Assembly (NCBI GenBank): GCA_032718475.1 | Contig: JAUCBJ010006269.1 | Location: 1 to 44,620 of the forward strand | Reading direction: 5' to 3' | Source of the DNA: Nemertoderma westbladi | Taxonomy: Eukaryota > Animalia > Xenacoelomorpha | Length of the DNA: 44,620 nucleotides | In this document: piece after piece, positions 4,837 to 42,521 of the stretch | Layout: each line of letters opens with the position of its first letter | Numbering within the stretch: the stretch's first letter is position 1 | Notes under the pieces: generated by a model | Seen by the model: the letters and a program-made list of their open reading frames with translations, nothing else | What the model was told of the DNA's origin: nothing | The model's database searches: none | Position numbers and translations under genes: made by a program

Positions 4837-4847
4837 TTGGGACTACC

Positions 4848-13322: not shown

Positions 13323-16300
13323 TTAAGAAGTCTGCTGAGTAATTTTATAATTGTGAAGGCTACCAGCAGTAACTCCTAAAACCTTCTTAGCAGCAAACTT
13401 TCGACGAAGTTTATGGGGAGGGAGAGAGACTCGATGAGTGGAACTAATCCCATAGCCACCACCACCTGGCGACTCCATAACGAACGTGTCCCCCGGCCCG
13501 AGAACCAACGATCTCTTCCCGCCGATATTCACGACTCTCCCGTCGCTAAAGACCACAGTGTTGCGACCCCGCTCACCCGGAGAGCCGCCGTTCATCCCGT
13601 ACGGCGCGAAGGATCTCCGTTCACTCAAAATACTCAGGGTCATTGTCTTCCTAAAGAGCAATTCCCGAATAATTCCATCTCCTCCGGTGAACTCACCGAC
13701 GCCTCCCGTGGCGAGGTTCACCTCAAATCGCTTCAACACAATCGGGTAGCGTTTCTCTAAGACCTCCGGATCGGTTATCCGCGTGTTCGTCATGTGGCAA
13801 TGAACGGCAGATCGGCCGTCCCATCCAGGCCCCGCACCCGCTCCTCCTCCAATCGTCTCGCAGTATCCCATCTCCTCGTCGCCTAGGGTTACAGTATTCA
13901 TACAGCCTTGCGAAGCTGCGCAGACAGAAAACGCCAAGAATATGACGTCACATAGACGTTGACTTGTCGTTACATTAGCACCCACGACGGCAGCCCCGGG
14001 GGAAGCACTCAAAATGGAGTTGGGGGGAATGATAACTCGGATTGGGTTCAAACAACCCTGATTGAGAGGCATCTCCTTACCAACCATAATGCGAAGGCAG
14101 TATATTATTGCAGCCATGGTTACTGCTCGAGGGGCGTTCGTATTCCCATAGACTTCAACACCAGTACCAGTGAAGTCAAAAATAGCGTCACCTGTATCAC
14201 AGTTTATTGAAACCTTCAAATTTATTGGAGTGCCGTCGTCCATATGGTCACAAGCGCTGAAATGAGATGCCCCTCTTTGAAGCAACATTTTTCTTCCAAA
14301 ATCCTTCAGCATATCTCTAACAAAGATCTCGGCATTTGACCTGATGTGGCTCATGTAAGCCTGAACCACATCCAACCCATACTCGTCTATCAAATCGCAT
14401 ACGAGTGCTATGCCCCTTTCATTCGCTGCCACCTGAGCATGGAGGTCGGACAAGTTGTCTTTGAGATTTCTTGTGCCACTACTGCCGGGATTGTCACCAG
14501 GAGAAAGTAAACGGGCGACAACTTCCTCCTCGCGGAAAACACCATCGACAACTAGTTTAAATGACTCAAAAACCGCCCCCTCTTGAGATAAAGCAGTTGA
14601 ATGGGGGGGCATAGACCCGGGTGAGATTCCGCCTATATCCGCGTGGTGTCCACGGTTTGCGACAAAAAATACCGGTTCTGGACTCATTTTATGATAAACT
14701 GGCGTGATGACAGTCATATCGGGTAAGTGGCTGCCACCACAGCGCGGGTGATTGCAAAGAATGACGTCACCTTCTCTCATACCGCCACTGACGTGTTTAA
14801 TCTGATACTGAACGGTTTCCTGCATTGCGCCTAAATGCACTGGTATATGAGGGGCGTTTGCAACAAGCCCTCCGTCTGGCCCAAAAATAGCGCATGAAAA
14901 ATCCAGTCGTTCCTTAATGTTGGTAGATATAGAGACACGTTGTAGGACTCGGCCAGTCTGTTCTGCTATACTCATAAATCTATGAGAGAATATAGACAAC
15001 TGAATGGCATCCAATTTCGTACCAATAACATTTGCACTTCCAGATCCTACTGATATGGTTAGGTTCCCGCTTTCGGTAATTTCAGCTTTACACTGAGGTT
15101 CAATAACAATTGTATTGTTGTCATCAACGATTATGGCTGGACCATTCATTTCCTGACCATAAGAAAGATCTGCTAATTTATAAATGTTGGTATCAACAAA
15201 CCCCTTCTCGAAATAACACTGGTTGATAGCTACGGATTTTGGTGGCGATATTTTTCTTAAAACTTTGTTGGGTTTTTGTATATTTGTGATTCCAGCACCA
15301 CGAACCCGAATATCGTCAATAACTAGGGAACGGTCTTTAACAATAAAACCGAATTCTCGTTTATATGAACGGAGAAATGATTGCAAATAATCATCATATC
15401 CACTGACGTTCATAATAGAGCCGCCAGATGGCGCGGAATTTCCACAAATCATCAACGCATGATCTGTACCAACATACCTCATATTTAGGTAATAATTGAA
15501 TCTCATATCGAACTTTTCAGAAAATCCGTATTCTTTAAGCGCCACCACGCATTTTAATTTCAAACGTAAAAACTCCTCATCAATAGAAGACATATTTGAC
15601 TCATTAAATGTGAAAGACGCCGGGGACTGTGCCTCATGAACCACATCAGCCAGTCCCATACCGTAAGCCGAAAGAATACCAGCATATTTATGAACCGTTA
15701 TTTTTTTCATCCCCAAAGTGCGAGCAATATCGCAAGCGTGTTGGGCCCCAGCGCCCCCGAAGCAAGCGAGAGCATGGTGAGCCGTATCGAATCCTTTGGC
15801 TTCGGTGAGGTTACGAATCGGTCGACACATTGTTTCGTTGGCAACCTTGATGAATCCAAGTGCAACATCTTCACTGGATAACAAAGGGTGATTAATTTGG
15901 TTGTCCGTGTAGAAAGAGTTTATTGCTTCCGCGAGACTCGATAAGACATTTAAGGAAGCCGCAAGGTCTAGGGGTTGGTTCTTTGTTTCGCCGAATATTT
16001 TCGGGAAATACTCCGGGATTAAACGACGTAACACGAGGTTGGCGTCGGTTATGGTTGCGGGGCCGCCTTTCCCGTAGCACGCGGGTCCGGGGTCTGCCCC
16101 TGCCGACTCCGGTCCGACTACGAACAGACCGGAGCTGAAGAACAGTCGCGATCCGCCGCCGGCCGCCACCGTGTTGATGTCGAGTTGCGGCGCTTGTATC
16201 GCGACCCCCGCTAGTGTCGCATCGAACACGTGTTCGAACTCACCCGCGTACCGCGACACGTCCGTGGACGTACCACCCATATCGAACCCGATTACAGGTT

Positions 16301-16750
16301 GACTCCCGTCGTAACTGGTAGCTGCGAACCCAACTACGCCCCCAGCGGGACCAGAGAGAATCGCACGGCATCCAGTAAAGTCGCGCATTGGAGTCAAACC
16401 ACCGTCCGACTGCATAAAGAGAATATTGGACTCATCCATATCTTTAAAACTTCTAGAGAAACCGTTGACATACTCTTTGATACAGGGGGTTAGATAGGCG
16501 TCAGCGCAAGCGGTGTGACCCCTTGGTACGATGCGGAACATCGGCATAACCGAACTCGATAGGGAAATGTTAGTAAATCCTATCTCCGCAGCTAATTGGC
16601 CAATCGCCCTCTCATGCTGAGTCATCGAATAGGAATGTAATAAGACGACAGCCAGACTGCGAATGCCTTTCTCAAACACTTCATTCAGATCTCGATATAA
16701 TTGGTCTAGTTTAATATCACCTTGGATGATAAATTCTTCTTGCGTAGTGC
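13323..16750 (-). CDS. OPLAH: OPLAH exon 5 (3428 nt, terminal)
   Basis: Acceptor tacattacag|GC; one open frame from GTTQEEF to ...KITQQTS*. Confidence 0.97.
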
Positions 16751-19700
16751 CTGTAATGTAGAAATATAACTAACATTAATTTAAACATTGTGAACCATTT
16801 CATAATTAAATCCACAAAACAATCAATACATAAAATATATTGCGACAGATAGTGGATACAACTTTAGATTTGCCTTTTCTTATGTTAATCAAAATCACGG
16901 TAGATGTATGTTATGTCTTCCAAGATAAATATTCTCAAATGTATTTTTCCCCAATTTCAACATTACTTAGCGAATCTTTAGTATTAGAATAATAAAGTAC
17001 ATTACGCCACTGATGATACATAGTGATACATGTTACTCCACTGATAACTCTAAAAGTAAAATAAAGTTTTCTTCAGCCGTTAGGCCAGAGACTACTTAAT
17101 GGTTTGTCTTAACTATTACAGTTTACTAGGAAAGTTTCAAAAGCAATCGTTTTCTAATAGCTAAATTTGGTAATGGTGTAGTGTAGTGAAATTTATACAA
17201 AACTTTGGCATAGCACTTTGTGTAATTATGTGTAATCTATTTTTTCCAAAATTGTAACATTACTCAACGCCGTTAGTATTAACACCGAGTTGTTATTTAG
17301 CACTTTACACATTTAGGGGACATTACAGCGTTGTATTGGCCTGTACATTTAGTATTGTATTTGGTGTTATCATTTAAGTAATGTCCCCTTAGTGGACATT
17401 ACTTAACGGATAACACCAAATACAATACTAAATGTACAGGCCAATACAACGCTGTAATGCCCTCTAAAGTTGTAAAGTGCTAAATAACAACTAGCTGTTA
17501 ATACTAACGGCGTTGAGAAATGTTACAATTTTGGAATAAAGTTAGTTATTCAATGTATTTTCTTGGCTGGAACTTGAAATTAATATGGTGCGATATACAA
17601 CTAAATTCTCGCTGCTAATATTAATGGGTAAAAAAATATTATCGAAAAACAACTATTCCTAATTGGTACAACGGTACTGCGCAGGTAACAAAATATATAC
17701 GTTCACTCTCTATGTATAAAATCTCACTTTTGTGTAGAATAGTATAACTATAATCAACCTTTGACTAATTTTCCAGGTATATCTAGAGTAGAATGATCTT
17801 GTTTGGGTACAACTCTGCAATCAACTTCTACCACTTCAGAGTACAACAGATCGGGCGATCGGATTTCTACATCAAATATATCTTGCCTATAAAGGATAAA
17901 TAGGAAAAAATATTATGTGGAATACACAAAGTTTACGATGTTATTACTTATTATTATTTATAGAGCATTGCAAATATAGTACGCATCTCCAGCTATATAT
18001 GAATAATATGATTGTATACATCAATTAAAAATAACTCGCAAACTAATTGTGTCTCAGAATGATCAAATAAATTCGATAAGATCATAAGTATTTTTTATTA
18101 CATCCGAGAAATACAGGAAGATGGATGAACTTTAAATTATTGATAATAAATTAATTGTAGTGGGGTGAGTGACGGTGAATTAAATATATATAATATAATA
18201 GAACAATATGATAATGCTCTCTATAGCGAAATATATCAACCGACCCTATTGGGGCTCGAACCCGGTACCAAGGTTTCAAAGTTCCGGTTATCATTAGCCG
18301 GGTTTGTGTCTATGACAACTGAGCTACCTGGACGGATGAAGAATTTATTCGCTATGGAGTGGGATATCATATTGTGAGGAACAGCGCAGTTGGGAGAGAG
18401 AGCACGCGATCGATCCGTCGGGTGAAGTGATAGGGCTATTCGACAACTCCCGTTAAGAATTGAAGTGAACCAACTGTATGTAGGAAGTTGAGAAAACTTA
18501 AGAATTTGAAGTGAACTGCCAGACTAATCAGTTTATTATATAATTATTATCAATAAGTAGATTATTAAGTGCACAAGGTTCAGAAATTACAGAAATTGTA
18601 TAAATACTAATTACAAATAAAAATGCCGCTATAAATATAAAAACGTTTACTGTTGTAAAAGTCAGGGGTTTCCGCTGGCAGAGGGTGAAGATGCAAGAAG
18701 GTACAGAAAGTGACGAAACATCGCCTTTTATAGCCAGACATCATGCAACTCGGGATCGAAACGTCTGAATGTTGATTGGCCGTAGCTCGTCACTGATTGG
18801 TCAGAGCTACTGGTTGGCCAAACAGTCACGTTTCGATCCTATTACACATATGAGCTGGTGAGAACTGGGGTCAATGACATAGAACGTATTATAGCGTGTG
18901 GCAAAGCAAACGTGACCCAATTGGACAAACTTACACGAGATTATTCACATATTGTGGGATTTTTCCAATCACTGAAAGGAAAGAACAACGCGATTCCTGT
19001 ACTCTCCAGTGAGTATTTCAGACAATCAACCAATCACAGTCGAAAGAATTTAGTGCCGTTGATTCGAACGACTACTCTGCGTTGCGCTGCTGGCTTGGGC
19101 CTGATCTTACTTTACCTTAGCCGCTCTTTGGAGTTGTTTCCCAGGTTGCGGATAGGGATATCATTTCACACCAATTTTATCACTAATTGTGATTGTGATT
19201 TCTATGCTTTGACTAAGTATTACATTAGATAGGAGAGAGTTTGTTTGGTTAATTCAAATCATTCTATTGCATATGAAGTGTCAAAAATGCAAGAAACCGC
19301 TATCTACAACAACTGTACTTATAGGGATGGTGAAGCATTATTTAAAAAAAACAGATGCTCCTGAGTTATAATGTCAATTCTTTGTTTAGACAGTAACTGG
19401 AGTTTCAATATCGCACATTATCTATTGTCATGCAGCCGGGATTTCCACCACTCCATCATGTTTGTTGCAGTACTAACCACAGCACTCAAAACCTCGACAT
19501 TAATGGTAACAGCTTGATATTAAATTATCCGTGAATTAACTAGGTTGCCATATTTAAAGTTTCGTTTCAAGCATAATATTTAAAAATAGTTACTACCCAT
19601 CCAATAACTTTAAGTTTAGAGTGTTTTCCATGCAAGAGACAAGAAGATGACCTAGTATATTTGCTATTGTTGCGCGATAAAGTTGAACATGTCTATCCCT

Positions 19701-22700
19701 AAATCTATTGAAATAAGAAAAATCGAGGCTGGTGATTTACCTGCTGTTAGAGAGATTGTTTACAATTGTCTTATGGAATTAACTGAACTCTACCATAAGG
19801 ATATTATTTCTAGAACGACCTTCTATGTGCCAGTGTTTGCGGCCTTTCTCATTCTTCTGACCTGCTACTCAACCCTATTTGCGATCTTAGTTTTGATCGC
19901 GGCTCCAATCCTATTGTATTTTTGGGTGAAATTGGTTTGGCACCATTTCATTACTACACGATTTTTCGATGGAAAACTCAACAGTTGGGCTGACGTTACT
20001 TTTCGTTACCTCGAGAAGGGTGGCACGTTTACTGTGGCCGTTCGTGGCGGTCACGTCATTGGCTGTGTGGGATTAGTTGTAGTTAATGACGTCATCGGTG
20101 CGGCTAAATTGGAAGTATTGAGTGTCGACACGAGATGGCGTAAGTCTGGAATTAGGAAAGAGTTGCTGAACCAAATTATCCAGGAAGCAGAAAGTAGTGG
20201 ACTTCGGGAACTGTTTCTTACTGTTTCTGTGTGTCGAGTTGCCGCCATATCTATATACAGGAAAACTGGTTGGAAGGAAGTAGCTTCGTTTCAGGAACCC
20301 AGGAATACGTGGACCTGTTAGCAACCAGTTCTAGTATGGGTATTCTATGGCGGTTCCGGAGATTCAAACCCCCAACCTATCGATCCAAAACCACAAATAT
20401 CGGGATCCAGATATTAGTTTATCCACTGGGAACTGTTCGGCACCATTTGAAGAAATTTGGCGCTTATATGAAAATCCGCACAAGGTTGCGTGAGCAACGC
20501 TTGTTCGGTTAACACTCGGATTGTCACGTTGAAAGGGCTACTTTTCCTACAGCGATGTAAATAGCTATTTCCGAGATATTCGGATAATTCAAACGTATAT
20601 TCAAACGTGTAAATTGATCAAATCATAATGCTTATTTACTATGTTCTAGAATGGTTATTAAGCTAGCGTTTTTAGAATACCAGTACAGTAAAAATAACAA
20701 CCACATGCCAAAATTCGTAACCTTTAATTGAAATATATAGATATCTGTATAATCAAATATACTTCCATTTCAATAGATCGAGTTATGTTGTTTCCAGAAA
20801 AACAAAACGAGGGCCGTAAAAGCTTTAAAGTTCTAATTGTGAAAAATAGAGAATCGAATTTCATTTATTTGTTATTAATAGTATTATAATTACTTATAAT
20901 AAAAATAATAATTATTATTAATAATAGTATTATTAACACTATATGCACTTCGACTTTCTAGAACAACCTTGTAACATGAAAGCTTGACATGTTAATTATA
21001 AACACAATTAGCGTAGTGAATAACGCGTTGGGTTATGAATGTGAAGGCCGCTGGTTCGATTCTAACTTATATCAATTTTGTAAGTTTAAAATTGTGTAAT
21101 AGTTAGTGTCTATTCGACTGACGGTGATGATATTTAGAATGTCGGGGTGACACACTGGACAATGTGGACATATATAGTAAATGTATGGAGTAGAGACATA
21201 CTGGGAAATAAAGTCGCACTGCGATATAAAGTTGGAAACTATGAAGCAGTGGGCGATTTGATAGTGCGAAATTAATTCCATAAAAATTGTTAGCGAATTC
21301 AATTCCGCCAACCACCCCCTAAAGTTGGCCAAGCAGGGCCTTTGAACAATATTGGGAGTACGAGGTTGATTTCCAATCAACCTCGTATCACCCCAATAAA
21401 CGGGGACAACAGGCCCCAAAGGAACACACACACAGCGGGGGTCAGAGGTTACACCCCCGGGAGGGAGAGAGTGACAGTAGCGGGGGGAAGCACTCCCAGA
21501 GAGATGGGAGGGCGAGAATTGGGTTATTAGCCAATGGGGGGCAGGCATCCACTGAGTGATGTAATACGGCCAACCAGTGCAATATATTACCAGTTACTGT
21601 TCCTCATTTATTCACTTAGTTAGTCAGTTTAGTTAGGGCAGAACGGGAACTCTTATTACCGTCCACTGCCGCCATCATCTTTCAGCTATTTACTGGTACA
21701 CTTACTCAACATTCAATCAACTGTGTTTATACTTTATTCAATTATATTATATCCCATATTTATACATACCGATCAACAACCCAGAACTCTTTTCACACAC
21801 AAACGGTGGGGACGCGTAGATAAGATAACCAACCGGATAAATCGGGGTTCTCGGATCCCGTCACAGTAATAAGATCTTATCTGCCCTAAGTAATAGAAGA
21901 AACTGTGACTGCCAGCCACCGACAGATAAAGCTAAAGATGAGTCGGGAAGGAGAAACGACACCGCCGCGGACCCTGGACGGCGACTTAACGATCCGCGAG
22001 GCCGCGACATGACGGTATCGACCCATGACGCCGGATCCATCGATTACAGGAGATCCGGCAATCCAAGAGGAGGGGGGCCGTCTACAGCAAGAGGACGAGT
22101 CGAAAGAGGGGAGAGACGAGTCGACACACGACGGCGGTCGACGTGCCGATGTCGCCGGCCAGCCACAGGCCGAGGGCGACGGACGGCCCACCGGAACGGC
22201 GACGGTGGGGCCGCCGGTACGATGCCGGACACGGAGGGATAGAGGAGACATCGGCGACGAGGACGTCGGGGTCAGCGACTGGCTCCGACGAGCCTACAAC
22301 GCGACCCGAAAGCAACTGAGGGAAGCCAAAGGAGGGGCCAAGATAGACGAGGTAAAGCTAGAGAAGCGGCTAGGTGAGTCGAATAAACATTTTGATTATT
22401 TAGTGCGCTTTGGGCAGGGAGAACTAGCCGATGAGAGAGCGAGAGGGGTTGCCACCGAACTGTTTGAATTGTGGGAATGTAGGGGCATGGAGCCTGGCGT
22501 AGTGTACGTAGTGCCATACTTAGTTGATGCCCGGGGAATTAAGTTGGTGGGTTGGAGAGGGCCGCAGGAGGGCGAATCCAAGGTTAACCCCGAGGATTCG
22601 GTCTCGTCGGTCGGCAAAAGTTTCAGGAAGCGGGGGAAAGTTAGTAGGACGGGAAGGCGATGGGAGTCCGTCGCGACCGATAAGTCTGCTACATCCTCCG

Positions 22701-25700
22701 CGAAAGTAAGACGGGTGATGGAAATAGATCTGGCGTGCCAGCTCGATCTGGCGGCGCTAGACCAGAGAGAATTAGAGAGACAGTTGGAAGAAGGGAGTGC
22801 GTTATTAGAGAAGGAGAAAGAGCTGGCTAGAGAGAACAGAGAGAGAGCCGAAAAGGTCGCGAGAAGTTTTAAGGAGTGTGAGGAAATAGGGAGGATAGAA
22901 AGGAAGGAGATAGAAGAGCGTGAGGCGAGAGAGCAGAATAGACGTGTAGAGCGTGAGGCGAGAGAGCAGAATAGACGTGAAGAGCGTGAGGCGAGAGAGC
23001 AGAGTGAGCGAAAAGAGTGCAAAGCGAGACGACTGGAGAGAGTTGTGAGAGAGGCGGAGTTAGCCGATCACAGTTCACGAGAGGATAGAGAGAGAGAAAT
23101 AACGGGAAAGCGTGTGTGGGATGATATGCACGCCCGGTTGAGGGGGCTTATGCAATATCAAGCCAAACAGAAGCGCCGACTAGAACTGGCGCAGATGGGG
23201 CTGTCAGAGAGCGAGGCTGGCTCGAGTAGTATTTACGAGGAGCCAGGAGTTCTGGAAACATTTATTAATACCCCACTTACAGGGACCGGACGACAGACCC
23301 AAGACTGGTGTGACCGTACGGGCGGGGGGGGGGGGGGGGTAATAATGATAATAATACAGTAAATGACGTTAATATTAATAGTACCGTAGTGGATAATTCT
23401 AACCAAACTTTCATTGCAGGAAATAATATTTTGCCCGACGGTAGTAATTTAAATCCGAATGATTCTAATAGAAATGTACAAAGTAGTCCGAATAATTTAA
23501 ATAATAGTCTAAACCCGAATATACAAAATAATTCAAATAATATAATTACGCAAAATAATTCAAATAATTTAAATTTAAATACACAAAATAATTTAAATAA
23601 TAATCCCGTTTCAAATTCTAATAATTCTAACAATTTAATTGATTTGGAGGATTTGATTGATTTGACAGATAATACTGGTAATGGTGCTATTAATATGAAC
23701 GTGGCGGACGTGCATAGCCCGGAAAATGAGGGCCTGGTAGGCCACGTAGTCAGTAGGCAGGAAGTGGCAAGGTTGAGTCAACCCAATGAGGGCCTGGTAG
23801 GCCACGTAGTTAGTAGGCATGAAGGGGCGGTGTTGAGTCAACCCAATGAGGGCCTGGTAGGCCAGGTAGTTAGTAGGCAGGAAGTGGCGGGCCTGGTAGG
23901 CCACACAGTAGCAGAGGGAGAGGGAGGCGGGGGTGAATAGACCCAGCTGCAGTAGGGTTAGTGTGTCGACTAGAGAGGGGTGTAGAAACGAAGTGAGAGA
24001 TAGTGAACTGATAGGTGGCGAGTGGGGGGGCGGGGGGGCTACAGGAGCCCCACAACGAGAGATTAGCGGCGAGAGGGGGGGGGGAGGGCAAAGAGTGTCC
24101 CACAAGCGTCGGCGGATAATGCGCGGGGCGAATTAGGTGAACCGAAACACCCGGCGATGGAGAATAGTAGGGGGATTACGAGTATTCCCAGCGGCGTGCG
24201 ATCGAGCAGAGAGAAGCAGGTTGACGTCACAAAAGGGCGAGCGACAAGACGTCGAGCCCAATCAGAAGAGGGAAGAAGAACAGTGGAGTTTAACCGGGAG
24301 GTCGACGAGAGATCTCATGACCGGGGATACTGCACTACAGAGAGAAGAAGGGAAGAGGATAGAAGAAGTGTCGTCGCGAATGACAGGAGAGCGAGGACGG
24401 ATAGCGAGCCGTCGGTAGTAGAGATGGAGACGGAGAGTCAGTGGGGTCGAACTCCGGGAGATTGCCGTCGCCCCGGGGAGACGCGACCTGACGAGGCGTA
24501 CTACGCGCAGAGATAAGGGTACAGGATGTACCGGTACGAGGACGAGAGCAGTAGAGGGGGTCGAAGAGAAACTTCCCGACGGGATCTGCCTAGCGATCGA
24601 GAGTACGGTAGCCACGGGGAGGATTATTCGAGAAGATTAAACTTTGATCCCGAGCGACACATACAGACTGCAGGACATACTGTAGGCCTTACTGCACATA
24701 CCATAGGCCATGCTGGGAGAGATAATGTAGGCGATAGGATAGCGCGGACGACGGGATTAAACCCGGAAGTTGCAGAGTACATACCGGCAGGTAGGCCAGA
24801 AGTAGATAGGCCTATACCGGTACCAGCACAGCAGTATGACTACAGCATGCAGGGACATAACATATATCCAGGGGAGGGGAGAGTTATTGCGGATAGGTGC
24901 ATGGGCCCCAATATATTAACATCAACCCCAGTATTAAACATACCGGTGGGGGGGGGGGGGGGGGGACAGGGTGACATTCCCCCATCACAATATCAACAAT
25001 ATATCCCAGTAGGAATAAGATCATCGAACCCCTTGGACGAGAATAGATCGTGCGACACCGAAATATGGAAGGGGCCGCTACCCCCAATGATATATCCAAG
25101 TCAAAGGAAAGCGGCAGACAGGACGAACGGACCGCACCCAATGGGAGAATCTATACAGCATCCATTGAACCCATTGGAAGCACAAGCAATGTGAATGGCT
25201 ACACTAATCGATGCATTAAGAACTAGGATCGAGTTACCACCCGTGGAACCGTTCAAATTCGATGGAAGTAGGCCGGAAGAATACCTGCAGTTTCGGCGCA
25301 TGTATAGCAATGAAATATTAACGAAGAATTTGACACAAGCGGAGTGCCTAAAGTATCTGCAAGTATATACAGGAGGCCCAGCATACGACATCGTGAGGCA
25401 ATAACAGGGCATTGAGGGTGGCTTCACGACAGCATGGCGGGCACTAGACAGGGAGTATGGGCACCCGGCCAAGATCATCCGGCAGACCCTGAGAGGTATA
25501 ACATCGGGTGGCCTACAGGATAACCCCGTTAGCATAAAGACATTCGCTAACAAAGTTGAGAAGGCGCTAATCGTGCTAAAGACACTGGACGCACCATACG
25601 AACTCAACGCATCCAATAACATCACCACGATAGCGCAGGCACTGCCGATGTGGTTGCGCAACAAGTGGAGGAAGATTGCTTTCTCCACTCGAGGCAGAAA

Positions 25701-28700
25701 GGGTGCGGAACCGGGTTTAGAAGAAATGTCGAGCTTCTTAAACTATGAAGCCGAACTAATAACGGACCCAGTCTATAGCGAGGATAGCCTGGGAAAGGGA
25801 CCAAAGACCGATTACCACAGGCCGAAACCAGAACACAATGCGTCGAACGCATTGCCAAAGCTCAGACAGTCACTGCCGTACGCGGCGATGCAGGGGACTG
25901 CTAGTCCACAAGTAGCCGGGGGTAAGACCACATCATGGAGCGGACAGGGGAAAAATAACAACACAAATAAACATAACCCCAGCACGCCCAGTAGGCCGAA
26001 CCCAAGCAATAAGAACAATAGGGACTTTGGTACGAACGCAAGTGCAATACGCAGCGCACTGTATAAGGACGGCTACAACCCAAAGAACAAATGCCAATTA
26101 CATACAAATGCACTTCATCAGACCATGAACTGCAGGTATTGGCAAGCGCTACCCAGGGAAGATCAGGTAGAATATGCGAGGAGAAATGAAATCTGTTCGC
26201 GATGTGTGATGAGTGGACATAGAGCTAACCAATGCAAGGAAGCGCCAATTAAATTCGGTCAAAGTAAAGGTCAGACAATGGCAACGAGCACCGTAGGGGC
26301 AAAGAAGAGAGGAACGGTACTACTTGGGGTAGTACCAGTGCGAGTGATTGGGGAAGGCAATCGATCAGTGACCACACTGATGCTGGTCGACAGTGGAGCA
26401 GCCTTCACGCTGGTTGAGGATTGGGTGGCCAAAGAGATAGGATTGAGAACGAGGCCAAGTAGAATGGTGGTAACAACCATTTCCAGCAAAGATGAGGTCC
26501 TGGAGATGAGGACCGGACGGTGCGCGATAGCAGCGATAGCACCGGGATGCGACTATGGGGCGACCATCGACCCCAGAGGTGATAGAGTCGATAGATATCA
26601 ACGCCAGGTGGCCAACCAACATCGAGGTCGAACAATACAAGTTCCTGGACAGTATCGACTTCTCAATCCCAGAGGTGGACGTTATGAAGGTATCCATTAT
26701 AGTAGGAATGGACTGCCCGACGGCCCACGAGAGAATGCGAACGGTCTTTGGCGAAGACAGGCAGTGTGACCCGGTGGTGATTTTAACACCATTCGGGTGG
26801 ACGCTGAGCGGCTCAATCAGGAGCAAAATACCGTTTAGGATGTCGGAGACATCAGGATGCATGTTCGCGGGAACTATGCGAGAAATGGGAGATGAGGGAG
26901 CGGAGGAGCAGCTCAGGAGACTGCTCAGGCAGGATTTTGAGGGATTGAAAGAGACCGGGGTCGGGACCTCGGTAGAAGACAAACAGGCTTTACAAAGTGT
27001 GGAGGAATCGATGACATGCGGTATACCATAGGGATGGTATGGAAGCTACCGAAGCTACCGCTACCCGACAATAAAGGAATGGTACTCAGGAGGCTTCGTA
27101 AGTTGAAGCAGACGCTAAAACGGAGCCCCGAGAAGAATGAGTACATTCACAAGACGATTAAGAAGTATGTCGAGAAAGGATGGGCCATAGAGTTACCGGT
27201 CGACGAACCAAACACGGACAGGACCTATTACCTGCCACTCCACGTGGCTCTAGACCCGAAGAAAGGTAAACTGCGGATGGTAGTTGACGCATCGGCTAAG
27301 ACCAACGGCAAATGCCTAAATGATTATCTGCTGGAGGGTCCCAACATCTACAACTCAGGGATCGAGGTCCTACTCAGATTCAGGAATGGGAAACACGCTT
27401 TCACCTGCGACATCGAAGGCATGTTCAACCAAGTCCGTGTAACGGAAGAGGATAGCGACAGCCAGCGCTTCCTATGGTACAACTGCGACGAGGAACCGTC
27501 GACCATACCGATGTATAAGATGATAGTACAGAATATGGGAGCCAAGTCGTCTTCATTTACGACGACTGTGGCCGTAAGAGACACGGTAAAAGGGAAGGAA
27601 GATAAATATAGCGCCAAAGCCGTCGATATGATTCGACGCGGCTTCTATGTAGACGACGGGATGGAGTCTGGAAATACGGTTAAGGAACTACTGGATACCG
27701 GGCGCGAGGTTCGCAACATCCTAAAAGGATCCGGGTTTAACCTAACCAAGTTACAATGAGGACAGGAGGCCAGAGTCAACCATGGATAATCCCACGACAG
27801 CCAAGGGACAGGACATGGCGAACAAGAGAGTAGAGTCCCAACAGAAGGCACTAGGGATTGTGTGGAACCGAGAGACAGACGAGTTGAAATACCAGTTGAG
27901 TCAGGAGGGCGCAGACATCCACACAAAGAGGGGCTATGTTTCGTATATAGCGAGGATATACGATCCCCTAGGCCTAGCATCCCCATTACTAGTCACGGGG
28001 AAACAGATACTCAAGAAAGTATACAAACTGAAGGAGGATTGGGACACAGAGGTCCCGGAAGAGATCAGCAAGCAATGGAGCAAGTGGACAGAGAGTTTAG
28101 AGCAGATGGGAACATACAGCATGCCACGCATATATTTCCCAGATGGGGACATGACGAATCTGGATCTGCACATGTTCTCCGATGCATCATTAGAGGCATA
28201 CGGAGCGGCACTCTACTTAGTACAACAAGAGGGGGCTCACAAGCCCAGACTCGCATTCAGCAAGGCAAAGTCGACGCCGCCAGATTCAGCATCAGTTCCG
28301 AAACTCGAGTTGACAGCTGCGAGGTTAGGAGTTAGGGCCACAGCCTACTTGATGGACGCTATTCCAAACATAGTGGAAACACACTACTGGACGGACTCCA
28401 TGGTAGTGCTTGGTTGGCTACACAATGAGAGGACGAGATACCCTATATTTGTCGCAAATAGGGTGGACGATATAAGAGCGACGACAGAATTGGAAAGGTG
28501 GCACTACTGCCCAACGGACGAGAACCCCGCGGACTTGTTATCGAGGGGCGGAGCACGCCACACTTTCTTAAAAAAGGAAGTATTGTGGCAGCACGGGCCG
28601 CAATTTCTGAACGATAGAACAGCCTGGCCACCGATGAGGAAGGTGGACCCGGGCTCAGGGGAAGTAGTATTAGAGGAAGAGGGAGGAGATTCAGAAGGTG

Positions 28701-31700
28701 AGGAGATATACAGCCAGATGGTGAGGGAGATAAGGGACGTGCAACTGAAACCGGAAGAACTGTGCGATAACCCGACGGACAAACTCCTTAGCTACAGCTC
28801 AAGTTGGTACAAGACCAAGAAGTTAGTGGCGTACTGTAGAGCCTTCGGGGACTTCCTTAAGGGAATCGGTAAAGACACAAAAGGTAAAACAACCGTCGAT
28901 CTGGAAGGGGCGGCCAAGGCCGTCATCCGCTACGAACAGCGGAAGAATTACGGCGACGAGGTGGAATGCGTCGGTAAAGAACAGCATCTCCGACGGGACA
29001 GTGAGCTGATCGCGCTGTCGCCACAACTCATTGATGATGGAATCTTAGTAATGAACTCTAGGGTGTTGAACAACAACAGTATCATCATTCCGCCAAAGCC
29101 CATCATCATCCCTAATGGATCGCCGATGGTCCACCAGATCATTTGGGACTCCCATAAGTCGATATTGCATGGGGGCACCAACCGAACCCTCACGGAGATA
29201 TGAAGGACCTTTTGGGTCAAAAAGTTAAGAAAGAAGGTAAAGGCGGTAGTGGGGCAGTGCCAGACCTGCCGACGAACGAAGAAGGAGCGAGCCATACAGG
29301 AGATGGCGCCACTACCGGCCAGTAGGGTGAGACAGCACGACCCGCCATTCACGCACTGTGGTGTGGATATGTTCGGGCCGATAGAGATTAAGGTGATGCG
29401 GCACACGGAGAAGCACTACGGCATTATCTTCGTATGTAACAACACGCGGGCGGTAGGGATAGAACTCGCCCAAGATGCAACAGCATCGGCATTCATCAAT
29501 GCCCTAGAGAGGTTCAGAGACCGCAAAGGTGGGACGATCGCAGTAATATACTCCGACAACGGAACCAACTTTGTGGGGGCAGAGAACGAGCTGGCGGATG
29601 CCTTGGACATCATGGAAGGGGAAGAAGTCAGGGCAGCCATGAGAAGACGACAGGTGAAGTGGGAGAGGAGGACGCCGTATGCTCTGCATACTCTAGGATG
29701 CGCCAAGAGACTCGTGGGTAGTTCAAAGCGTCTAATGACGAAGTTGATGAACACCCACATGGTAACAGAAGACGTACTGAGGATGGTACTAGCAAAGTGT
29801 GAGGGTATCATTAATAGCAGACCGCTATATCCAGAAAATGATGACCCAGAGTCATTAGATGTGCTGAAGCCCAGTCACTTTCTAATGGAAAGGCCGGCGA
29901 CCATCGACATGCGGGGTGTAGACCCAGACGATATACACTCCCGCCTAAGTTGGAAAGTCGCTAAGGCGATAAGTGCAGAGTATTGGAGGAGGTGGGTCGA
30001 GGAATATCTACCCACGCTTCATAGGAGAAGCAAGTGGAGAAATACAAACAGGGAGTTAAAGGAAGGTGATCTGGTGATCGTCACGGACGATACCATCATC
30101 AACAACCAATGGCGATTGGCGAGAGTCGTGGGCACTTACTCCGATGAGGACGGAAGAGTCCGATTGGTAGAAGTGCGGATAGGTGGCAAAATAGGAGCGA
30201 AAGATAGAAAGACCTACAGGAGGGCTGTAGGTAAGTGCTGCCTTCTGGAGGGAGCACCATAGTGTTTAGTCATCCAAGTTTTGGACTGAGGGGGGTGGGA
30301 TTGAGGGCGAGACGCACTTCCCACACAAATAAAAAATAATAATATAAAAAGAAAGAGAAAGTAATAGCACATAATAGGTACGCAGTAAGTAGGCAGATAG
30401 AAGTAGTAAGAGGGTACGTAGTACCGTTAGTTAGTTAGCAGTAAGAGGGTACGTAGTACCGCTAGTTAGTTAGTAGTAAGAGGGTACGTAGTACCGCTAG
30501 TTAGTTAGTAGTAAGAGGGTACATAGTACCGCTAGTTAGATAGTTAGTTAGTAGTAAGAGTGTACGTAGTACCGTTAGTTAGATAGTTAGTTAGTAGTAA
30601 GAGGGTACGTAGTACCGCTAGTTAGATAGTTAGTTAGTAGTAAGAGGGTACGTAGTACCGTTAGTTAGATAGTTAGAGGTTAGTAAGAGGGTACATAGTA
30701 CCGGTTAGTATGAGAGAGTTAGAGGTTAGTAAGAGGGTATGTAGTACCGGTTAGTAGGAGTTAGTTAGAGGTTAGTAAGAGGGTACGTGGTACCGTTAGT
30801 AGGAGTTAGTTAGAGGTTAGTAAGAGGGTACGTAGTACCGGTTAGTAGAAGTTAGTTAGAGGTTAGTAAGAGGGTACGTGGTACCGGTTAGTAAGAGTTG
30901 GTGGAGTTAGAAGTTAGTAAGAGGGTACGTGGTACCGGTTAGTAAGAGTTAGTGGTAGAAGGGTATGTATAATATAAATATTAGTTAGTAGTGAGTAGCG
31001 AGAGGGGGGCATGTGAGTACAGCTGGATAAATCGTGTAGGCCACGCGACCCATACTGTTATACTGCACAAGCCCACAGAGTAGGCCAGAATGTGGATTAT
31101 AGAATAGAATAATCCATTGGCGGAATAAGTAATAGCACAGTAGTAGGATTGAATTAAATTAAAAATAGTATAAAAGGTAGAAATTAGACAAATTATGGTA
31201 ACAGTAGGGAAAATATTCTGGAACATAATTAAAGTAACGGACAAAATTGCAAAATTTAGTACAATTCGGTAGTTTTAGAAAATTAGTTAGGAAAATTAGG
31301 CTATAACTTAGGTTTCTGGGAGAAGTAGGCCATTATCGAACTGAATAAACCATCCTAACGTTATCACTCATCTGTAAAGCGCCTTGGCAAGGCACCACCT
31401 TACAGGTGAGTGGGTGAGAGAGTTCGAAATGGCGGAGAAACTGGTCAGAAAGAGAAAGGCGGAGTTAGGAGGAAAGGAGATACTGGTGGATTTCACCGAG
31501 AGGCATCCGGAAGAAAAGACGAGGGGATACTACGAGCGGTTAGAGAGAGGTCACAAAGCGCGAGCGCTACAGGACCATTTCAGGGAGGTGCACGAACAGC
31601 GGCTGGTCGGGACCTACGGGATGCCGTCGCTGGACAACGCGATCTTCGAGCATTTCCACTACGTGGTGAAGGGAGACGAGGCGAAGTTTGGGATTCCGAA

Positions 31701-34700
31701 GTACGCGAAGGAACCAGGAAAGAGGTTCGTAGAGTCCGTGAGCAGGGGAGGATACATGGTCCTAGACGATGAGGGGACCGTGGAAGACGAGGAAGGTTCG
31801 AGGAGAGGATCGGCGGGGTCGGCCAGAACCATACTCCTACATTTGGCCACGCCAAATGGGGATATATTCCTATTCGATCTAGGGACGTATGGAAAGAAGA
31901 ATGGGCCGAAGTTGAACCGGTTGCCAAAGGCGGTGCAAACCCTAGTGAGAGAGAAGTCAACGACGAAGGTGGGATCGGCGATCCGCGACGATGCGGAGAG
32001 AATCATCGGTCCGGACACCCCCAACCTCCTGGACATGCAGACGGTCTACATGGCTATGACAGCACCAGACGGGTAGGGACTAGTGGAGAACACAGGCCAT
32101 TGTGGAGCGGTGGTGATGGGCCAGCTAATGGGGCTCGTGTGTCACAAACCAATGGACTGGAGTAAGTTCAGAGAGGAGTACGGAGCGGAGTTGGCGAACT
32201 CGCTGAAGTGGGGAGCGAGGCCAGGGAGACAAGAGGTGTATCAATTCCGGAGAGGAGCGATAAAGGTATATCAGAAGCGATATATCCTGCAGGAGGACTG
32301 GATAATGATGGGTTTGCTTAACCTATTCATGACCGTGGTTATCGAGAGGGAACCAACGGCATTCCTATTATCGGGATCACCCCTGAACTACAGAAGAGCC
32401 TTCAAGACGGCTTCGAGGGTCTGGTAGACCACCCGGGGCTGAAGGGCGAGTTGGTGTACTATAACTGCCGACATCTGGTAGACGGGGAGGTGGATACGCC
32501 GTATCAGAGATGGGAGCAGCTAGAGGCGGATAGACGAGAAGCGAAGCGATTGGAAGAAATCGCTAGGCAGGAAAGGAGAGAGGCAGAGGAAAGGGAGGAA
32601 GAAGCTAGAGCGCAGAGCTACAGCTTCGAGGAACAGGCGGCCTTAGACGAACTTCGTTGGACGTCATCAGGGAGTTCGGGGGAGTCTCTAGGGCGAGAAT
32701 TAGGGTGGACGGTGGGATCACCGAAACAGTCGACATCGGGATTGCAGACGACGCCCATACCAGCGGGCGCCGAGGGCGATCACCCGCTAAGGAGGCTAGG
32801 GGAGCTGGAAGGATGGAAAGTCACGGGCGAGAGCCAAGGTGGGAAGGGACGCAGTGGGTCCACCAGGATACCAGGGTTGGAGCCAATCCCAGTGGAGGAC
32901 GAGGATGACGACGAGTTCGGAGAGATGCCGCCCATTGGGAGGATCGGCCACTCGGACACGGACTGGGTTGGCGGGAGGGTGGTGACGGCCAGTGGGGCGA
33001 GAGCCTTCTGGGATAGACCCGGCAAGCGGGCCTGGGTGCATGAGGAGCCGGCGATGGATTTCGCGGGGAGCACCATCAGGTTGGGCGAGCAACCGGGAAC
33101 GGCACCACGGGTAGTATTCGGGGAGACTATGCCCGGGAGGGGCGAGGAGATAGACGTGGACAGGGACGCTAACGTCCAAAAGTTCGCTTACCAGCGACTC
33201 TACAGACTGCGGAGATCGCTTGGGACGATAGACGACGTGGGGTGGGAGACATTGGTGCTCGGCTGCGATTACTGTGGGAGGCAAACCCACCAGGAAAGGA
33301 GCTGTTTGTACCGGTTCCAGAAAGGGACTAGTTGTCTCTACTGCCGCGAGTCGAGCCACAGGATGGGGGCGTGTCCACGGTTGCACAACCAGTGTTCGAA
33401 GTGCAACTTCCGGGGGCACTACAGACACCAGTGCGACTGGATGGACGACGAAGAGAAGTTTAGGATCTTCGAGGAGTGGGCCGATGTCGGGGCCATGACT
33501 CGGCAACGTATGAAGGCCCAGGAGTTCCGGTGGGCCTTCTTTAATATCAACCAGGAGGCCCATTTGGAGATTATCAAACGGAGACTTCCGTTTACCTACC
33601 AGGAGGTAGCGACGGCGGCGTCGTATGCCGGGGTGATAAATACGCAGAGGTATTTGGACAGGTGGACGCCACAGAACAGAGGATAGTTCAGAGATTTCTT
33701 GGCGGAGTATGTGCCGCGAGCGATGAAAGTGATCCTATGGGACGCCACCAGGGGGAGACAACAGGGCCACTCGGAGGGGCCACCCGCGAAGCGATATCGG
33801 GAGCTAATAACACCAGCGCCCAAGGAGTCGACGACCGGGATTAGTAGAGAGGTGACAGCGAGGGTCAGGAGCCTGAAGGGAGATAAGACCAAGGGAGCGG
33901 CAGCGGCCAGGAAACGACCAAGAGAAGAGGACGACAGAGGGAAGGACTTGAGATGGTTCCCAAAGTCAGGTGGAACGATCTAAGACTTCGATGTGGCATG
34001 CCTGGAAGGCACCACGTGAGACGTGCGAACTCCTAAGTACAAATTCAAATAATTTAAATAATTGAAAAGTGCAATTAGTATGTACGTACGTAACAATCAC
34101 TAGTCTAGTAAGTAAATATAATCAAAGTAAGTACTATAGCCATATAACCTTTTTCCAATTAGCTACTGGGACTGGGACCAATTGACTATGGTACTGTGAA
34201 TCACAAACGAGACATTGGACGACATCACACTTCTTGAGTGCGACGGCACAGGAGGGGGGTGAGACTCGTCAGGAGTGAGTGGGTGAGATAGGGGTCGAGT
34301 GATAGCGCGAAAAGAGTGCGGGTACAATTCAAGTGTGGGGGGGGGGGGGGGAGGAGGAGTAAGAGGCCAGAGTGAGGGACTAGGAGGTCCGAGAGTTAGA
34401 GCGGAAGTGAAGAGAAGTAGAGGAGAGTGAGAGTAGAGTGGAGTTAGAGTGGCGAGAGTGTTGGGGAAACAAAAATCGTGTGAGAGAAAGTCACGATCGG
34501 CCCGACACGGGACGCCAGAAAGACGGGGTAGCGATATCATACCCATAGGGAGCAGCCTGGAAAGCCGGCTCCGAAGAAAATAATTCCACCCCACACCCGA
34601 TAGTAGATCGGGAATTGTAGCGCACTAGAGGTGGATGCTATCTTCTCACCAGGAAGATAGCATGGGGGGGGGGGGAGTGTTAGCGAATTCAATTCCGCCA

Positions 34701-37700
34701 ACCACCCCATAAAGTTGGCCAAGCAGGGCCTTTGAGCAATATTGGGAGTACGAGGTTGATTGCCAATCAACCTCGTATCACCCCAATAAACGGGGACAAC
34801 AGGCCCCAAAGGAACACACACACAGCGGGGGTCAGAGGTTACACCCCCGGGAGGGAGAGAGTGACAGTAGTGGGGGGAAGCACTCCCAGAGAGATAGGAG
34901 GGCGAGAATTGGTTTATTAGCCAATGGAGGGCAGGCATCCACTGAGTAATGTAATACGGCCAACCAGTGCAATATATTACCAGTTACTGTTCCTCATTTA
35001 TTCACTTAGTTAGTCAGTTTAGTTAGGGCAGAACGGGAACTCTTATTACCGTCCACTGCCGCCATCATCTTTCAGCTATTTACCGGTACACTTACTCAAC
35101 ATTCAATCAACTGTGTTTATACTTTATTGGTGTAATATTATGGGTTTGTTCAGAAGTGGAAAAAATTTATTTATACTTTATTCAATTATATTATATCCCA
35201 TATTTATACATACCGATCAACAACCCAGAACTCTTTTCACACACAAACGGCGGGGACGCGTAGATAAGATAACCAACCGGATAAATCGGGGTTCTCGGAT
35301 CCCGTCACAAAAATAAATAAAATACCTGTGAACACAGTCCTACAAAAAATACCTAAAAAATAATAATAATTACCTGAACAGAGAAACACTAACCTGGTTT
35401 GATTTCCAATATAAAGGAGGTCCCGAAAACCTTTATTTATTACTAGAGCTATTGACGCCCCCTTACGTTCGAGTAAAGCATTGGTTGCTACGGTTGTACC
35501 CATACGAATCCATTCTATCTGTTAAATAAATTGTCATTAACTCATTAAACGACACTAATTTTCATTATTTTGGATAAAATTACACTCTAAAACTTTGTTA
35601 AGGGGGGGGGGGGGGGGGGGGGGGTACACCATTTTGGTCCAAAATATATCGAAATTATTTTTATGTTCTATCATAATGCACCACTAAATGGTGTTTCCAA
35701 ATCTGAAAACCGCTATTTAATAGCTCTTTTAGTTTTCAAGTTATAACAATTTCCCTTTAGGGAATCCTATTGAAATTACTATTACTATGTATAATGAAAG
35801 GTCGATTATCACCAAATATTTTTTTTATGAAATTGTCAACTTCAAAATCCTACTACTTCTACAATTTTTTAGCAAATAGTCTGAAAATTTCTGTGGGTGT
35901 CTACATAGCAGCCCTGCATAAAAGTCTTAGACAATTTTATGAAATTTGTTGTTAATAAAATTTTATACTATTTTTAACAAACCTATAAAATTTGCATAAA
36001 TTTGCAGCGCCTCCTAGCGGTGCATAATTATTTTCACAACATTTCACCTGATAGTTATGTTGCCCCATCTTTGATCTATCATATAAAAAAGATTAGATTA
36101 AAAACTGTAAAAGCCTTAGGGTTTTAAGCGCAACCAAGTTTTTTTTATTGTTAACTAATATTAAATAGCGAACATTTTTGACCTGTCTGGTTTGTAGACT
36201 CTGACCTGTCATGTAGAATAGCATCTTAGGTACCAATATTCCAAATTTTAGCCAAAACCAAACAAATTTGAAACGATGAGAGTGATAAATCGAAGATTTG
36301 TCCGAAAATGGTGTACCCCTAAATTGCATTAAGGTGACCGACCTGGCTATGTAATTTATTCATTGAGTCTGTAATATATTTTATGTATCAGGGACACCTC
36401 AGCAAATGAGGTGCCATCAAACGTGATTAATTACAGGTAGAAGCAATGAATACTAATTGTACATGGCCACTTAGAAGTTTAGGCCAGTTAATTAAAAACG
36501 CCAAACTACAAAAGCTAAGAATAAAAAGTGCAACAGGTAGAAAACAAAAGGAATTGTTGAAACGGAACACAACTGATTGGTAACTATGGTAACGGAACGA
36601 TGTGGGTGGTACCAAACGGAACGAAATGGAACAATCAGAAAGAAAAGGAGTGGAACGTTATCGAACTGAACTTCAGTGAAGTTCAATAAGAACGGGAGAT
36701 GAGGCAAATGTTACCTGGCTCGTTCCTATTGGCTCATCTTTATCTATATTAACGCCAGTCTCTTCTGATATTATCCTTCGTATTGCTTCTTTAGGAGCGT
36801 CTTCATAAGAATCATCGACTGAGAGCAGTTTGTAAGAACGCACCTTTACGAATAATATAAATATAAACTTCCTTAAAAGGAATACGATACATCAGGCACT
36901 ACGTTAGATAATTTTTAAGGAGTGTCTCTCCCCACCCTCTTAAGGTACAATCACAACAACAATCACCCCCCCCCCCCCCCCCCCCCCCCCTCCACCCTCC
37001 ACCTCCCTTCCATTTCTCAGATATTTAAAAAAAAAAATTTCTTCGGCCGTTAGGACAGGGATTACGCACAAAGTCTGACGACTTATTTCCAGTGCGGTCC
37101 CCCCAAAACTATACTCCCCAGAGGACACTTCAGTACTCATTTAGCTACCACTTAAGGATGCATGGCAGAGATACCGAAACAAAAACTGCCCTGGCCAATG
37201 CGAGGATCGAACCCACGACCTACGGGAGATGTGAATTCAATGCAACCACTACACCAAGGTGGGAACTATATATTTATCCAGCAGTTTTGCATAAACTTTC
37301 GTTATTCAGTTTAAAGTTATAGTGTAAGGTAATGTTATTTTCCATCAAATATAACGGGCCCTCACAGTTACGGGGTCTCTGGGTGCCAAAGTGACGCGTG
37401 AAGAGTGGCGGTCTGCAGGTATGCACTGCACTACTGCATGCACAACGAACACGGAACTTACAGTGAACTGCACAAACACACAGACTCAAAAATCTACCAC
37501 AATGAATTGGAGGTTGTTTCATCCAATGGATTACCAGGACTGACCTCGACTTGTCAGTGTTACAGTACCCGGAGGTACAAACAGTAACACCGCATATGGA
37601 CCGATACGAGGGGGATGGGGGCGCTAACTAAAACAATAAACTATAAAGTCAATAGCAAATGTTACAGTTTAGTTTTTTCTCACAATCAATCAGCTGTTAT

Positions 37701-38987: not shown

Positions 38988-39124
38988 ATAGTTCTAATCA
39001 AAGCGTCAATAGTTCTAATCAAAGCGTCAATAGTTCTAATCAAAGCGTCAATAGTTCTAATCAAAGCGTCAATAGTTCTAATCAAAGCGTCAATAGTTCT
39101 AATCAAAGCGTCAATAGTTCTAAT
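38988..39124 (+). repeat. Perfect 21-bp tandem repeat ATAGTTCTAATCAAAGCGTCA, about 6.5 copies
   Basis: Identical units read directly from the sequence. Confidence 0.95.
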
Positions 39125-40560: not shown

Positions 40561-42521
40561 AAGTTCGCCTAAATTGGAACTAAATTCGCCAAAATTGGAA
40601 CTAAATTCGTTTCGATTGGAACTAAATTCGCATGAGGCGTAAATTGGAACTAAGTACGGGGAATCTATGAGTGTATTAATTGCTCATAATCGTATGATTA
40701 TTTTATTGTTAATAATATTTTAATTATTTAAATCACTGCGCCGATTCTTCTTACTATACTGTAGTATATTTTATTTTGTTACTTTCTTTTTGTAGAATTA
40801 AATTACTTAAAGTCCCGCCGGGATATACATACATACAGTGTCCCATAGAATGTTTAAAAAATAATGTTTAAAGTATTTAAAAAATGTTTAAGGTTAAAAT
40901 AATTTTAAAGTGTAGAAAGTAAATTTTAAAGGAAACTGTTAGCCAAAAGTGGATTTAAAATAAAGCAACGTCTCATTTCCATGGTAATAAATAGTAAATT
41001 ATTACTGTAGTAGGGTCTACAATTTATCTTAAATCATTCCTGAGTTTTGCGGTCGTAACGTAACGCTAGGTAAAGCCTTTTTTGAAGTAATTATTATGTC
41101 TAATTGATTTACCAATATATTTTCCAACTTTGTATCACATTCCCACATTATTTCCCAGTATGTCATTACACCACGTGTGATCCTGTACAGTGTCAGTCGT
41201 ACAGTAACGCTTTCAAATAACGTCCTATTGGATCCTAATAGGATCCTAATAGGAATCTAATAGGAAAAAAATAACCACCTAAATAACCACATAAGGAACC
41301 ATTAGTTCCAATTTACGCCTCATGCGAATTTAGTTCCAATGGAAACGAATTTAGTTCTAATTTTGGCGAATTTAGTTCCAATTTAGGCGAACTTAGTTCC
41401 AATAACTAGAGAAAAACGAAAACGAATTTAGTTCCAATGCAAGCGAATTTAGTTCCAATGGATGCGAATTTAGTTCCAATGGATGCGAACTTAGTTCCAA
41501 TGTTTCAGGTGTGGGGCGAGCCACGTAGTTTGGCGAAGAATCTGTTTAATGCCACTATTAGGTGGATGGTTAAATAATAATTGTAAATAACTAACCCAAA
41601 ACGCCCAACCTCCTAACCAAAACAATCTTATCCCAAACAACGCCCAACCTCTTAACCCAAACAATTCAATTAAATTCATTTATATTTAATCATTTAAAAT
41701 GATATTCATTGTAAAAAACAACGCCCAAGCTCTTAACCTAAACTTCGCCCAACCTCCTAACCCAAACAACGCCCATCCACCTAAACCGAAACAACTGGTA
41801 AATATTGTATTTGGTGTGGAAATGGCACAATGTGCATGACGTGAGTATATTATAATATTACAGACTCAGTCAGTCTGTATCAGTATACTCGTGATTAATA
41901 TATATTTACAATTATTGTTGACCCTGACCCACCCCAAATAGTGGCAATACGCAATAGGCTTCGCCTACTACGTGGCTATCCCTACGATTGAAACATTGGA
42001 ACTAAGTTCGTACCCATTGGAACTAAATTCGCTTCCATTGTAACTAAAATTCGCTTCCATTGGAACTAAATTCGCATCCATTGGAACTAAGTTCGTACCC
42101 ATTGGAACTAAATTCGCTTCCATTGGAACTAAATTCGCTTCCATTGGAACTAAATTCGCATACATTGGAACTAAATTCGCATCCATTGGAACTAAATTCG
42201 CATGCATTGGAACTAAATTCGCATCCATTGGAACTAAATTCGCATGCATTGGAACTAAATTCACATCCATTGGAACTAAATTCGCATGCATTGGAACTAA
42301 ATTCGCTTCCATTGGAACTAAATTCGCTTGCATTGGAACTAAATTCGCATCCATTGGAACTAAATTCGCATCCATTGGAACTAAATTCGAATCCATTGGA
42401 ACTAAGTTCGTTTTGATATTCTGGGATTGGAACTAAGTTCGCCTCGATTGGAACTAAGTTCGCTTTTGTAAAATATATTTTGGAACTAAATTCGTTTCAA
42501 TTGGAACTAAGTTCGTGCTAC
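40561..42521. repeat. Complex of 21-bp TTGGAACTAAATTCGCATCCA units in alternating orientation
   Basis: Forward blocks at 40561-40653 and about 41995-42515; reverse block at 41302-41501. Confidence 0.9.

Follow-up and report, generated by a model that had tools for sequence, protein, structure and literature searches.

DEDDy-type exonuclease genes and self-priming leaders are both known from retrotransposons. Rodriguez et al. (2017) described DEDDy third open reading frames (ORF3s) in the rotifer elements Juno, Vesta and Athena, with DEED motifs and with activity given as undemonstrated (PMC5408684; PMC6431247), and 3'-end processing of element RNA was proposed for them (PMC5408684). In Trypanosoma brucei RNase D (TbRND), a cellular enzyme acting on U-tailed guide RNAs, four zinc fingers directly follow the nuclease, and this zinc-finger domain enhances both the binding and the cleavage of RNA (PMC7797062). 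Self-priming anatomy, in which the leader is complementary to the element's own long terminal repeat (LTR), has been described in Tf1, Tj1 and some plant lineages (PMC4600332, PMC6317226). Here, we analysed a 44,620-nucleotide stretch of the xenacoelomorph Nemertoderma westbladi (contig JAUCBJ010006269.1 of assembly GCA_032718475.1, positions 1 to 44,620 of the forward strand; hereafter the window), which contains an LTR retrotransposon with a second ORF between pol and the 3' LTR. The element is of BEL/Pao type as judged from its pol domains alone, and comparison of protein sequences makes DEDDy ancestry of the second ORF very probable.

Like ORF3 of Juno, Vesta and the Athena-Terminon elements, the second ORF is a non-env frame that follows pol inside the LTRs, is of DEDDy type, lacks an anchor and has one D-to-E change. 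Unlike them, it sits in a BEL/Pao-type element, whereas Juno and Vesta belong to a retrovirus-like clade; its change lies in Exo III (DEDE, with D retained in Exo II), whereas the rotifer motif is DEED; and its ~850 residues include three CCHC knuckles, whereas the published descriptions of the rotifer ORFs, on which this comparison is based, report none. The capture looks independent. TbRND resembles the second-ORF product in placing a zinc-finger domain after the exonuclease, but it has four fingers and is encoded by a cellular gene, whereas here three knuckles follow a long low-complexity linker in a mobile element. The earlier note on this DNA had mentioned DEDDy extra ORFs from gypsy-type elements, and these are in print for rotifer gypsy-like elements (PMC5408684); with that precedent and the trypanosome enzyme (PMC7797062), its phrase "undescribed system" was an overstatement. 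Our literature search, in which the slash spelling of BEL/Pao was partly unmatched and which had Repbase, Dfam, GyDB and subscription journals outside its scope, did not turn up an exonuclease ORF in any BEL/Pao element, and the word "exonuclease" is absent from the main text of a BEL/Pao survey (PMC3118150). What is new here is the host superfamily, BEL/Pao, together with a DEDE-y domain that is divergent, three knuckles and, in the same element, a primer site of non-tRNA type.

Profile comparisons carry the identification of the nuclease domain. A seed profile searched against the PDB ranked WRN, MUT-7/Nibbler and EXD2 at the top. A custom profile of 51 sequences, comprising 8 stand-alone bacterial PF01612 proteins and 43 longer relatives (fish and other WRN) and picked by hypothesis, placed the N-terminal piece at the top of all 839 frames of the window, with 21.9 bits and E 3.6e-6, and the best unrelated frame reached 3.6 bits. 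The X-read protein scored 21.0 bits, whereas 5,000 shuffles reached at most 5.0. With the same profile, 13 true PolA exonuclease domains scored 12.2-32.1 bits and a DEDDh-like protein 0.0. After correction for all 24,736 Pfam families, a value of ~1e-4 remains, and hhalign gave P 8.6e-6 with a probability of 83%.

Moreover, an unsupervised alignment assigned D113, E115 and D188 to columns that are invariant across 49/49 exonucleases, Y285 to the Y column (46/49), Q282 to the matching column and E289 to the D column (46/49). In Exo III, E289 thus stands where the family has D, with D290 one residue further, and as aligned the motif is DEDE-y. The earlier note had read an ordered WRN/EXD2/MUT-7/RNase D motif series in this half. 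Its DxE, Exo II aspartate and tyrosine stand above chance, but Exo III carries a glutamate and W..RP is less sure: W261 of that motif falls on the family W in one alignment and against gaps in the other. The domain shares the order and spacing of Exo I-II-III with WRN, EXD2 and MUT-7/Nibbler (2e6l, 2fbt, 6k17, 7jw2, 7jw6), whose profile scored best among those tried; it differs from them in its low identity (~15-22%), in insertions after Exo I and before Exo III and in the Exo III glutamate. Small profiles of PolA (13 sequences) and RNase D (4) left the ORF outside the top 6. The sub-branch assignment is tentative, because the RNase D and PolA profiles were shallower and the comparison was made without an Rrp6 profile.

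Several points weigh against this identification. The HMM match spans residues 131-192 alone, and Exo I and Exo III rest on an alignment of lower confidence. The Exo III acid is E, in contrast to D in 46/49 relatives, and the preceding Ala-Ala is Ile-Leu. An unguided single-sequence AlphaFold model had a predicted local distance difference test (pLDDT) score of only 32.5, and structure searches from that model were uninformative. A first, 9-sequence EXD2-like profile also ranked the ORF first, with E just 0.1; one of its sequences, the DEDDh-like L144, was excluded from the later profiles.

Family databases added nothing. The earlier note had suggested PF01612 as a check, and no match above the Pfam cut-off appeared; the N-terminal half had no Pfam or NCBIfam match, and both halves were blank apart from one match at E 0.42. 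Two word-index homolog searches with the N-terminal half, among longer proteins and proteins of near lengths, returned 0/3,252 and 0/2,119 candidates. It had no relative in PDB sequences, metagenome contigs, phages or three bacterial records, and a plasmid search gave six records at E 1-7, none of them an exonuclease. A phmmer search of 1.84 billion cluster representatives returned a single repetitive protein, aligned over 36 residues in 8 stretches, which we rejected as spurious. This blank in Pfam, NCBIfam, the PDB and protein databases, the low unguided pLDDT and the three breaks in the window copy would all be expected if the ORF were a captured or unrelated frame that the element carries without function (passive cargo), or if the motif match had arisen by chance. 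The 16-bit gap over 5,000 shuffles and the 18-bit gap over the next unrelated frame speak against such a coincidence, as does the behaviour of other copies of the ORF.

Five runs contain the ORF stretch or part of it. At a likeness threshold of 80%, contigs covering the ORF numbered 9,363, 6,394, 6,022 and 84 in four runs from three studies; most were 90-99% alike, with depth in 30, 30, 30 and 29 of 30 bins. No contig spans the whole ORF, so linkage to pol concerns the window copy only, and depth is not copy number. From 40 of 741 variant rows we classed 36 variants, omitting three upstream rows and the stop; one of the 36 precedes the ATG and was left uncounted. In the N-terminal half, 11 of 16 shared variants are synonymous, against an expected fraction of 0.34 (p 0.005). 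Near-private changes are synonymous in 4 of 13 cases, and their contrast with the 11/16 is borderline (p 0.048). Three facts temper this result: the C-terminal half has no excess (2/6 shared variants synonymous), the test uses 36 of 741 variant rows, and four of the synonymous sites sit close together in codons 122-128, where linkage is probable. These variants thus lend modest support to purifying selection acting on the nuclease half.

LTR divergence predicts ~22 substitutions in the ORF since insertion, which accounts for the three breaks of the window copy. Because of this and of the synonymous excess, we consider passive cargo or a chance match highly improbable; judging by its many copies and their variants, the ORF is a multi-copy family gene and probably functions in the family.

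An AlphaFold model guided by the exonuclease alignment reached pLDDT 70.3. Some circularity is inherent in this model, which was run without a control, and it shows compatibility with the DnaQ fold only. It matched WRN with Z 13.0 and a root-mean-square deviation (rmsd) of 3.1 over 162 residues, tied with RNase D (12.9) and Nibbler (12.7); TbRND (7c42) followed with Z 11.8 (rmsd 3.7, 178 residues), and Exd1 (11.2) and an Egalitarian-BicD-RNA complex (11.6) were further neighbours, as were viral 3'-5' exonucleases.

Since the profile has WRN exonuclease as its best PDB match and the fold search places it joint first, the product could instead edit DNA ends, by WRN-like trimming of extra bases from the cDNA or by proofreading reverse transcription. 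The primer site and the polypurine tract abut the LTRs without a spacer, so that exact cDNA ends are needed. However, WRN/EXD2-type proteins were the source of the profile, which partly builds in the rank of WRN; CCHC knuckles more commonly serve RNA binding, and most LTR elements need no such enzyme. A DNA-end editor is in our view very unlikely.

The structural class nearest to the product includes Nibbler/MUT-7, and Nibbler trims piRNA 3' ends (PMC13269885). The product might thus be an active exoribonuclease that counters silencing by shortening or destroying piRNAs and siRNAs of the host, or the precursors of either. In the genome studied, the family is abundant, and the recurrence of DEDDy ORFs in unrelated retroelements suggests a general benefit (PMC5408684). 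In the guided model, however, the likeness to Nibbler is no closer than that to WRN or RNase D. Rotifer small RNAs cover every ORF type, with no clear link to copy number in the account given there (PMC5408684), and a literature search combining the relevant terms yielded no publication. We regard counter-silencing as unlikely, while giving it more weight than DNA-end editing.

The state of the active site bears on a further alternative. The non-canonical Exo III and the insertions would suit a catalytically weak or dead RNA-binding adaptor, which would bind element RNA for export, transport or packaging, or decoy host trimming factors. EXD1 and Maelstrom are examples of DEDD derivatives that have become inactive but still bind RNA (PMC5408684), Exd1 and the Egalitarian complex are among the fold neighbours, and the nuclease domain makes up only ~200 of ~850 residues. 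Four acidic positions and the tyrosine are retained, whereas a long-dead enzyme would tend to lose them, and rotifer ORFs with a D-to-E change are thought to be possibly active (PMC5408684). On balance, we consider an adaptor unlikely, much as we do counter-silencing, and a catalytically active domain the likelier case.

The architecture of the second ORF agrees largely with the earlier note, which had joined four ORF pieces across two TAG codons and one frameshift and placed the gene inside the LTRs in the env position. The pieces 31378-32073 and 32077-32424 share one frame, and 32322-33683 and 33687-33980 another (Table 1); length variants near 32410 occur in part of the contigs in 4/4 runs. 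The reported ~865 residues result from counting from 31384, but no ATG lies there, and the length from the first ATG is the shorter one given above. The ORF lies between the end of pol (30262) and the start of the 3' LTR (34678). Its three knuckles, also seen in the earlier note, have the strict pattern CX2CX4HX4C, which occurs only twice elsewhere in the window (89,236 six-frame codons), once as the gag knuckle; an Atlas feature for the knuckle region leads to zf-CCHC clusters, all under 0.9. The maximum 19-residue hydropathy of the product is 1.32, with no membrane-like stretch, as the lack of a clear anchor in the earlier note had implied. An env identity was ruled out, there being no hydrophobic anchor. 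A spliced message for the second ORF is unsupported, because no splice acceptor with five or more pyrimidines was found in the spacer between pol and the ORF. A consensus splice donor (CAG/GTGAGT, also a weak acceptor) lies at 31403-31411, ~20 bases before the first ATG.

Window self-comparison yielded one long direct repeat, the two LTRs, which delimit an element of 14,022 bp. The LTRs differ by 10 substitutions in 578 columns (1.7%) and by a single 54-bp length difference; with so few substitutions, the insertion is young. The 54 extra bases of the 3' LTR (~35116-35169) are AT-rich and open with a short repeat of sequence downstream. In the pol region, Pfam domains follow in the order DUF1759 (weak), Asp_protease_2, RVT_1 (weak), Peptidase_A17 (E 1e-42), Integrase_H2C2, rve (weak) and DUF5641 (E 9e-25). 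PF05380 (Peptidase_A17) is described as the Bel/Pao RNase H (PMC3985635). The ICTV profile of Belpaoviridae gives LTRs of 0.2-1.2 kb and genomes of 4.2-10 kb (PMC8742986). LTR size, target duplication, polypurine tract and the domain order with PF05380 all agree with that family, but the element exceeds its size range, and its primer site departs from the 18-nt tRNA-Arg/tRNA-Gly type in its leader start and LTR pairing. About 3 kb of low-complexity coding sequence precedes the recognisable gag domain and, added to the second ORF, gives the element its unusual length. This region (22013-25194) has no Pfam match under E 0.01 and is probably a gag extension, a gag assignment that we infer. Rfam gave 0 matches within the element, and its integrase had no relative among viral contigs.

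The primer site had already been called odd in the earlier note. The leader starts with GTAAT and lacks a TGG pairing a tRNA 3' end, host tRNAs having been outside the comparison; instead, it pairs with the element's own LTR. Among 20,000 simulated null LTRs, 69 reached the 9-bp block and none reached both blocks. Pairing stops precisely at the edge of the LTR, the point at which a primer has to end, and in the predicted fold the 10-bp helix has a pair probability of 0.92-1.0. Tf1, Tj1 and sushi share the absence of a tRNA-type site and a post-5'-LTR sequence complementary to the LTR (PMC4600332, PMC6317226). They differ in being Ty3/gypsy chromoviruses, with some plant copia elements also proposed, and the accounts of their self-priming mention no accessory exonuclease.

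Against self-priming, the 9-bp primer helix has a pair probability of just ~0.47, and the energy of the 277-nt fold is unremarkable (z -1.62). A near-copy of the primer-site sequence in U5 (21816-21826, the competing segment being 21816-21824) competes about 50:50 for 21651-21659 and, in the modelled fold, could act as an RNA switch. Priming from an internal tRNA fragment may also occur. We rejected a primer made by splicing within the LTR, as the blocks are 8 bases apart, judged by eye to be too short for an intron. An initiator-like TCAGT at 21624 is only a hint of a transcript start.

Taken together, we tentatively favor the reading that the second ORF encodes a WRN/EXD2/Nibbler-type 3'-to-5' exonuclease that trims the RNA ends of its own element, which we hold to be possible though short of probable. 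In this scheme, unbroken copies would make one protein of ~850 residues, the knuckles would raise its RNA affinity by analogy with the zinc-finger domain of trypanosome RNase D, and the glutamate would act as the fourth metal ligand. Its most specific task would be to trim element RNA as far as position 21659, where the LTR-leader duplex has its edge, thereby creating the end that primes reverse transcription; for this the LTR-complementary leader offers an anatomical hint. The complete proposal, that a BEL/Pao lineage without tRNA priming carries its own primer-finishing WRN/Nibbler-type exonuclease with three knuckles, is quite doubtful. In Tf1, RNase H generates the primer end, and the exonuclease may therefore be dispensable for priming.

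Table 1. Positions of the features of the retrotransposon and its second ORF in the window
Feature	Position	Strand	Basis or remark
Left target-site duplication, AAAAT	21283-21287		same 5 bases 3' of the 3' LTR
5' LTR	21288-21865	+	TG...CA, 578 bp; self-comparison with 3' LTR
LTR block, 10 bp	21633-21642	+	complementary to leader 21880-21889
LTR block, 9 bp	21651-21659	+	complementary to first 9 post-LTR bases; candidate self-primer end
Primer-site position	21866-21889	+	begins GTAAT; sequence
Low-complexity 5' coding region	22013-25194	+	Glu/Arg-rich, Asn-rich, 33- and 60-bp repeats; in pieces
gag-protease-reverse transcriptase-RNase H-integrase	25195-30262	+	in pieces; Pfam
43-bp tandem array	30402-30990	+	within ~1.2-kb spacer separating pol and second ORF
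Second ORF	31429-33983	+	~850 codons from first ATG; broken in window copy
DEDDy-like 3'-5' exonuclease domain	31750-32340	+	profile, alignment, guided model
Motif codon D113	31765-31767	+	
Motif codon E115	31771-31773	+	
Motif codon D188	31990-31992	+	
Motif codon Y285	32281-32283	+	
Motif codon E289	32293-32295	+	
First in-frame TAG	32074-32076	+	private to window copy; differs in whole contig depth, 4/4 runs
Overlap of two frames	32322-32424	+	frame change near 32410
Three CX2CX4HX4C knuckles	33264-33434	+	33264-33305, 33333-33374, 33393-33434
Second in-frame TAG	33684-33686	+	absent among the 40/741 variant rows inspected
Polypurine tract	34664-34677	+	14 purines; abuts 3' LTR
3' LTR	34678-35309	+	TG...CA, 632 bp; 54 bp longer than 5' LTR
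Right target-site duplication, AAAAT	35310-35314		

The rest of the window holds repeats and two further coding frames. A strongly C-skewed 71-bp satellite occupies 5247-11939 (93.6 copies, 94% matches) and adjoins 21/83-bp repeats (4885-5245) and a gypsy-type RNase H remnant on the minus strand (4288-4842). A 5-oxoprolinase/hydantoinase gene (13323-16769, minus strand) runs for 1,148 codons in a frame without interruption; it contains just the final part of the N-terminal Pfam domain, which makes an upstream exon likely. A single 210-codon frame (19689-20321, plus strand) encodes a GNAT acetyltransferase whose N-terminal segment is hydrophobic. A near-perfect palindrome lies at 17240-17540 (150-bp arms, 93% complementary, 1-base gap), a perfect 21-bp tandem repeat of 6.5 copies at 38988-39124, and nested inverted repeats of 21-bp units at 40561-42516, which may be foldback or miniature DNA elements.

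The DEDDy accessory genes that retrotransposons carry were reported in 2017, with no role known for them. Routine annotation misses such genes, because the one studied here has no detectable relative among the cluster representatives searched. The same element offers a defined candidate substrate, the LTR-leader duplex. If the proposal is true, primer finishing would be the first job assigned to the DEDDy genes of retrotransposons and would represent a third route to the minus-strand primer.

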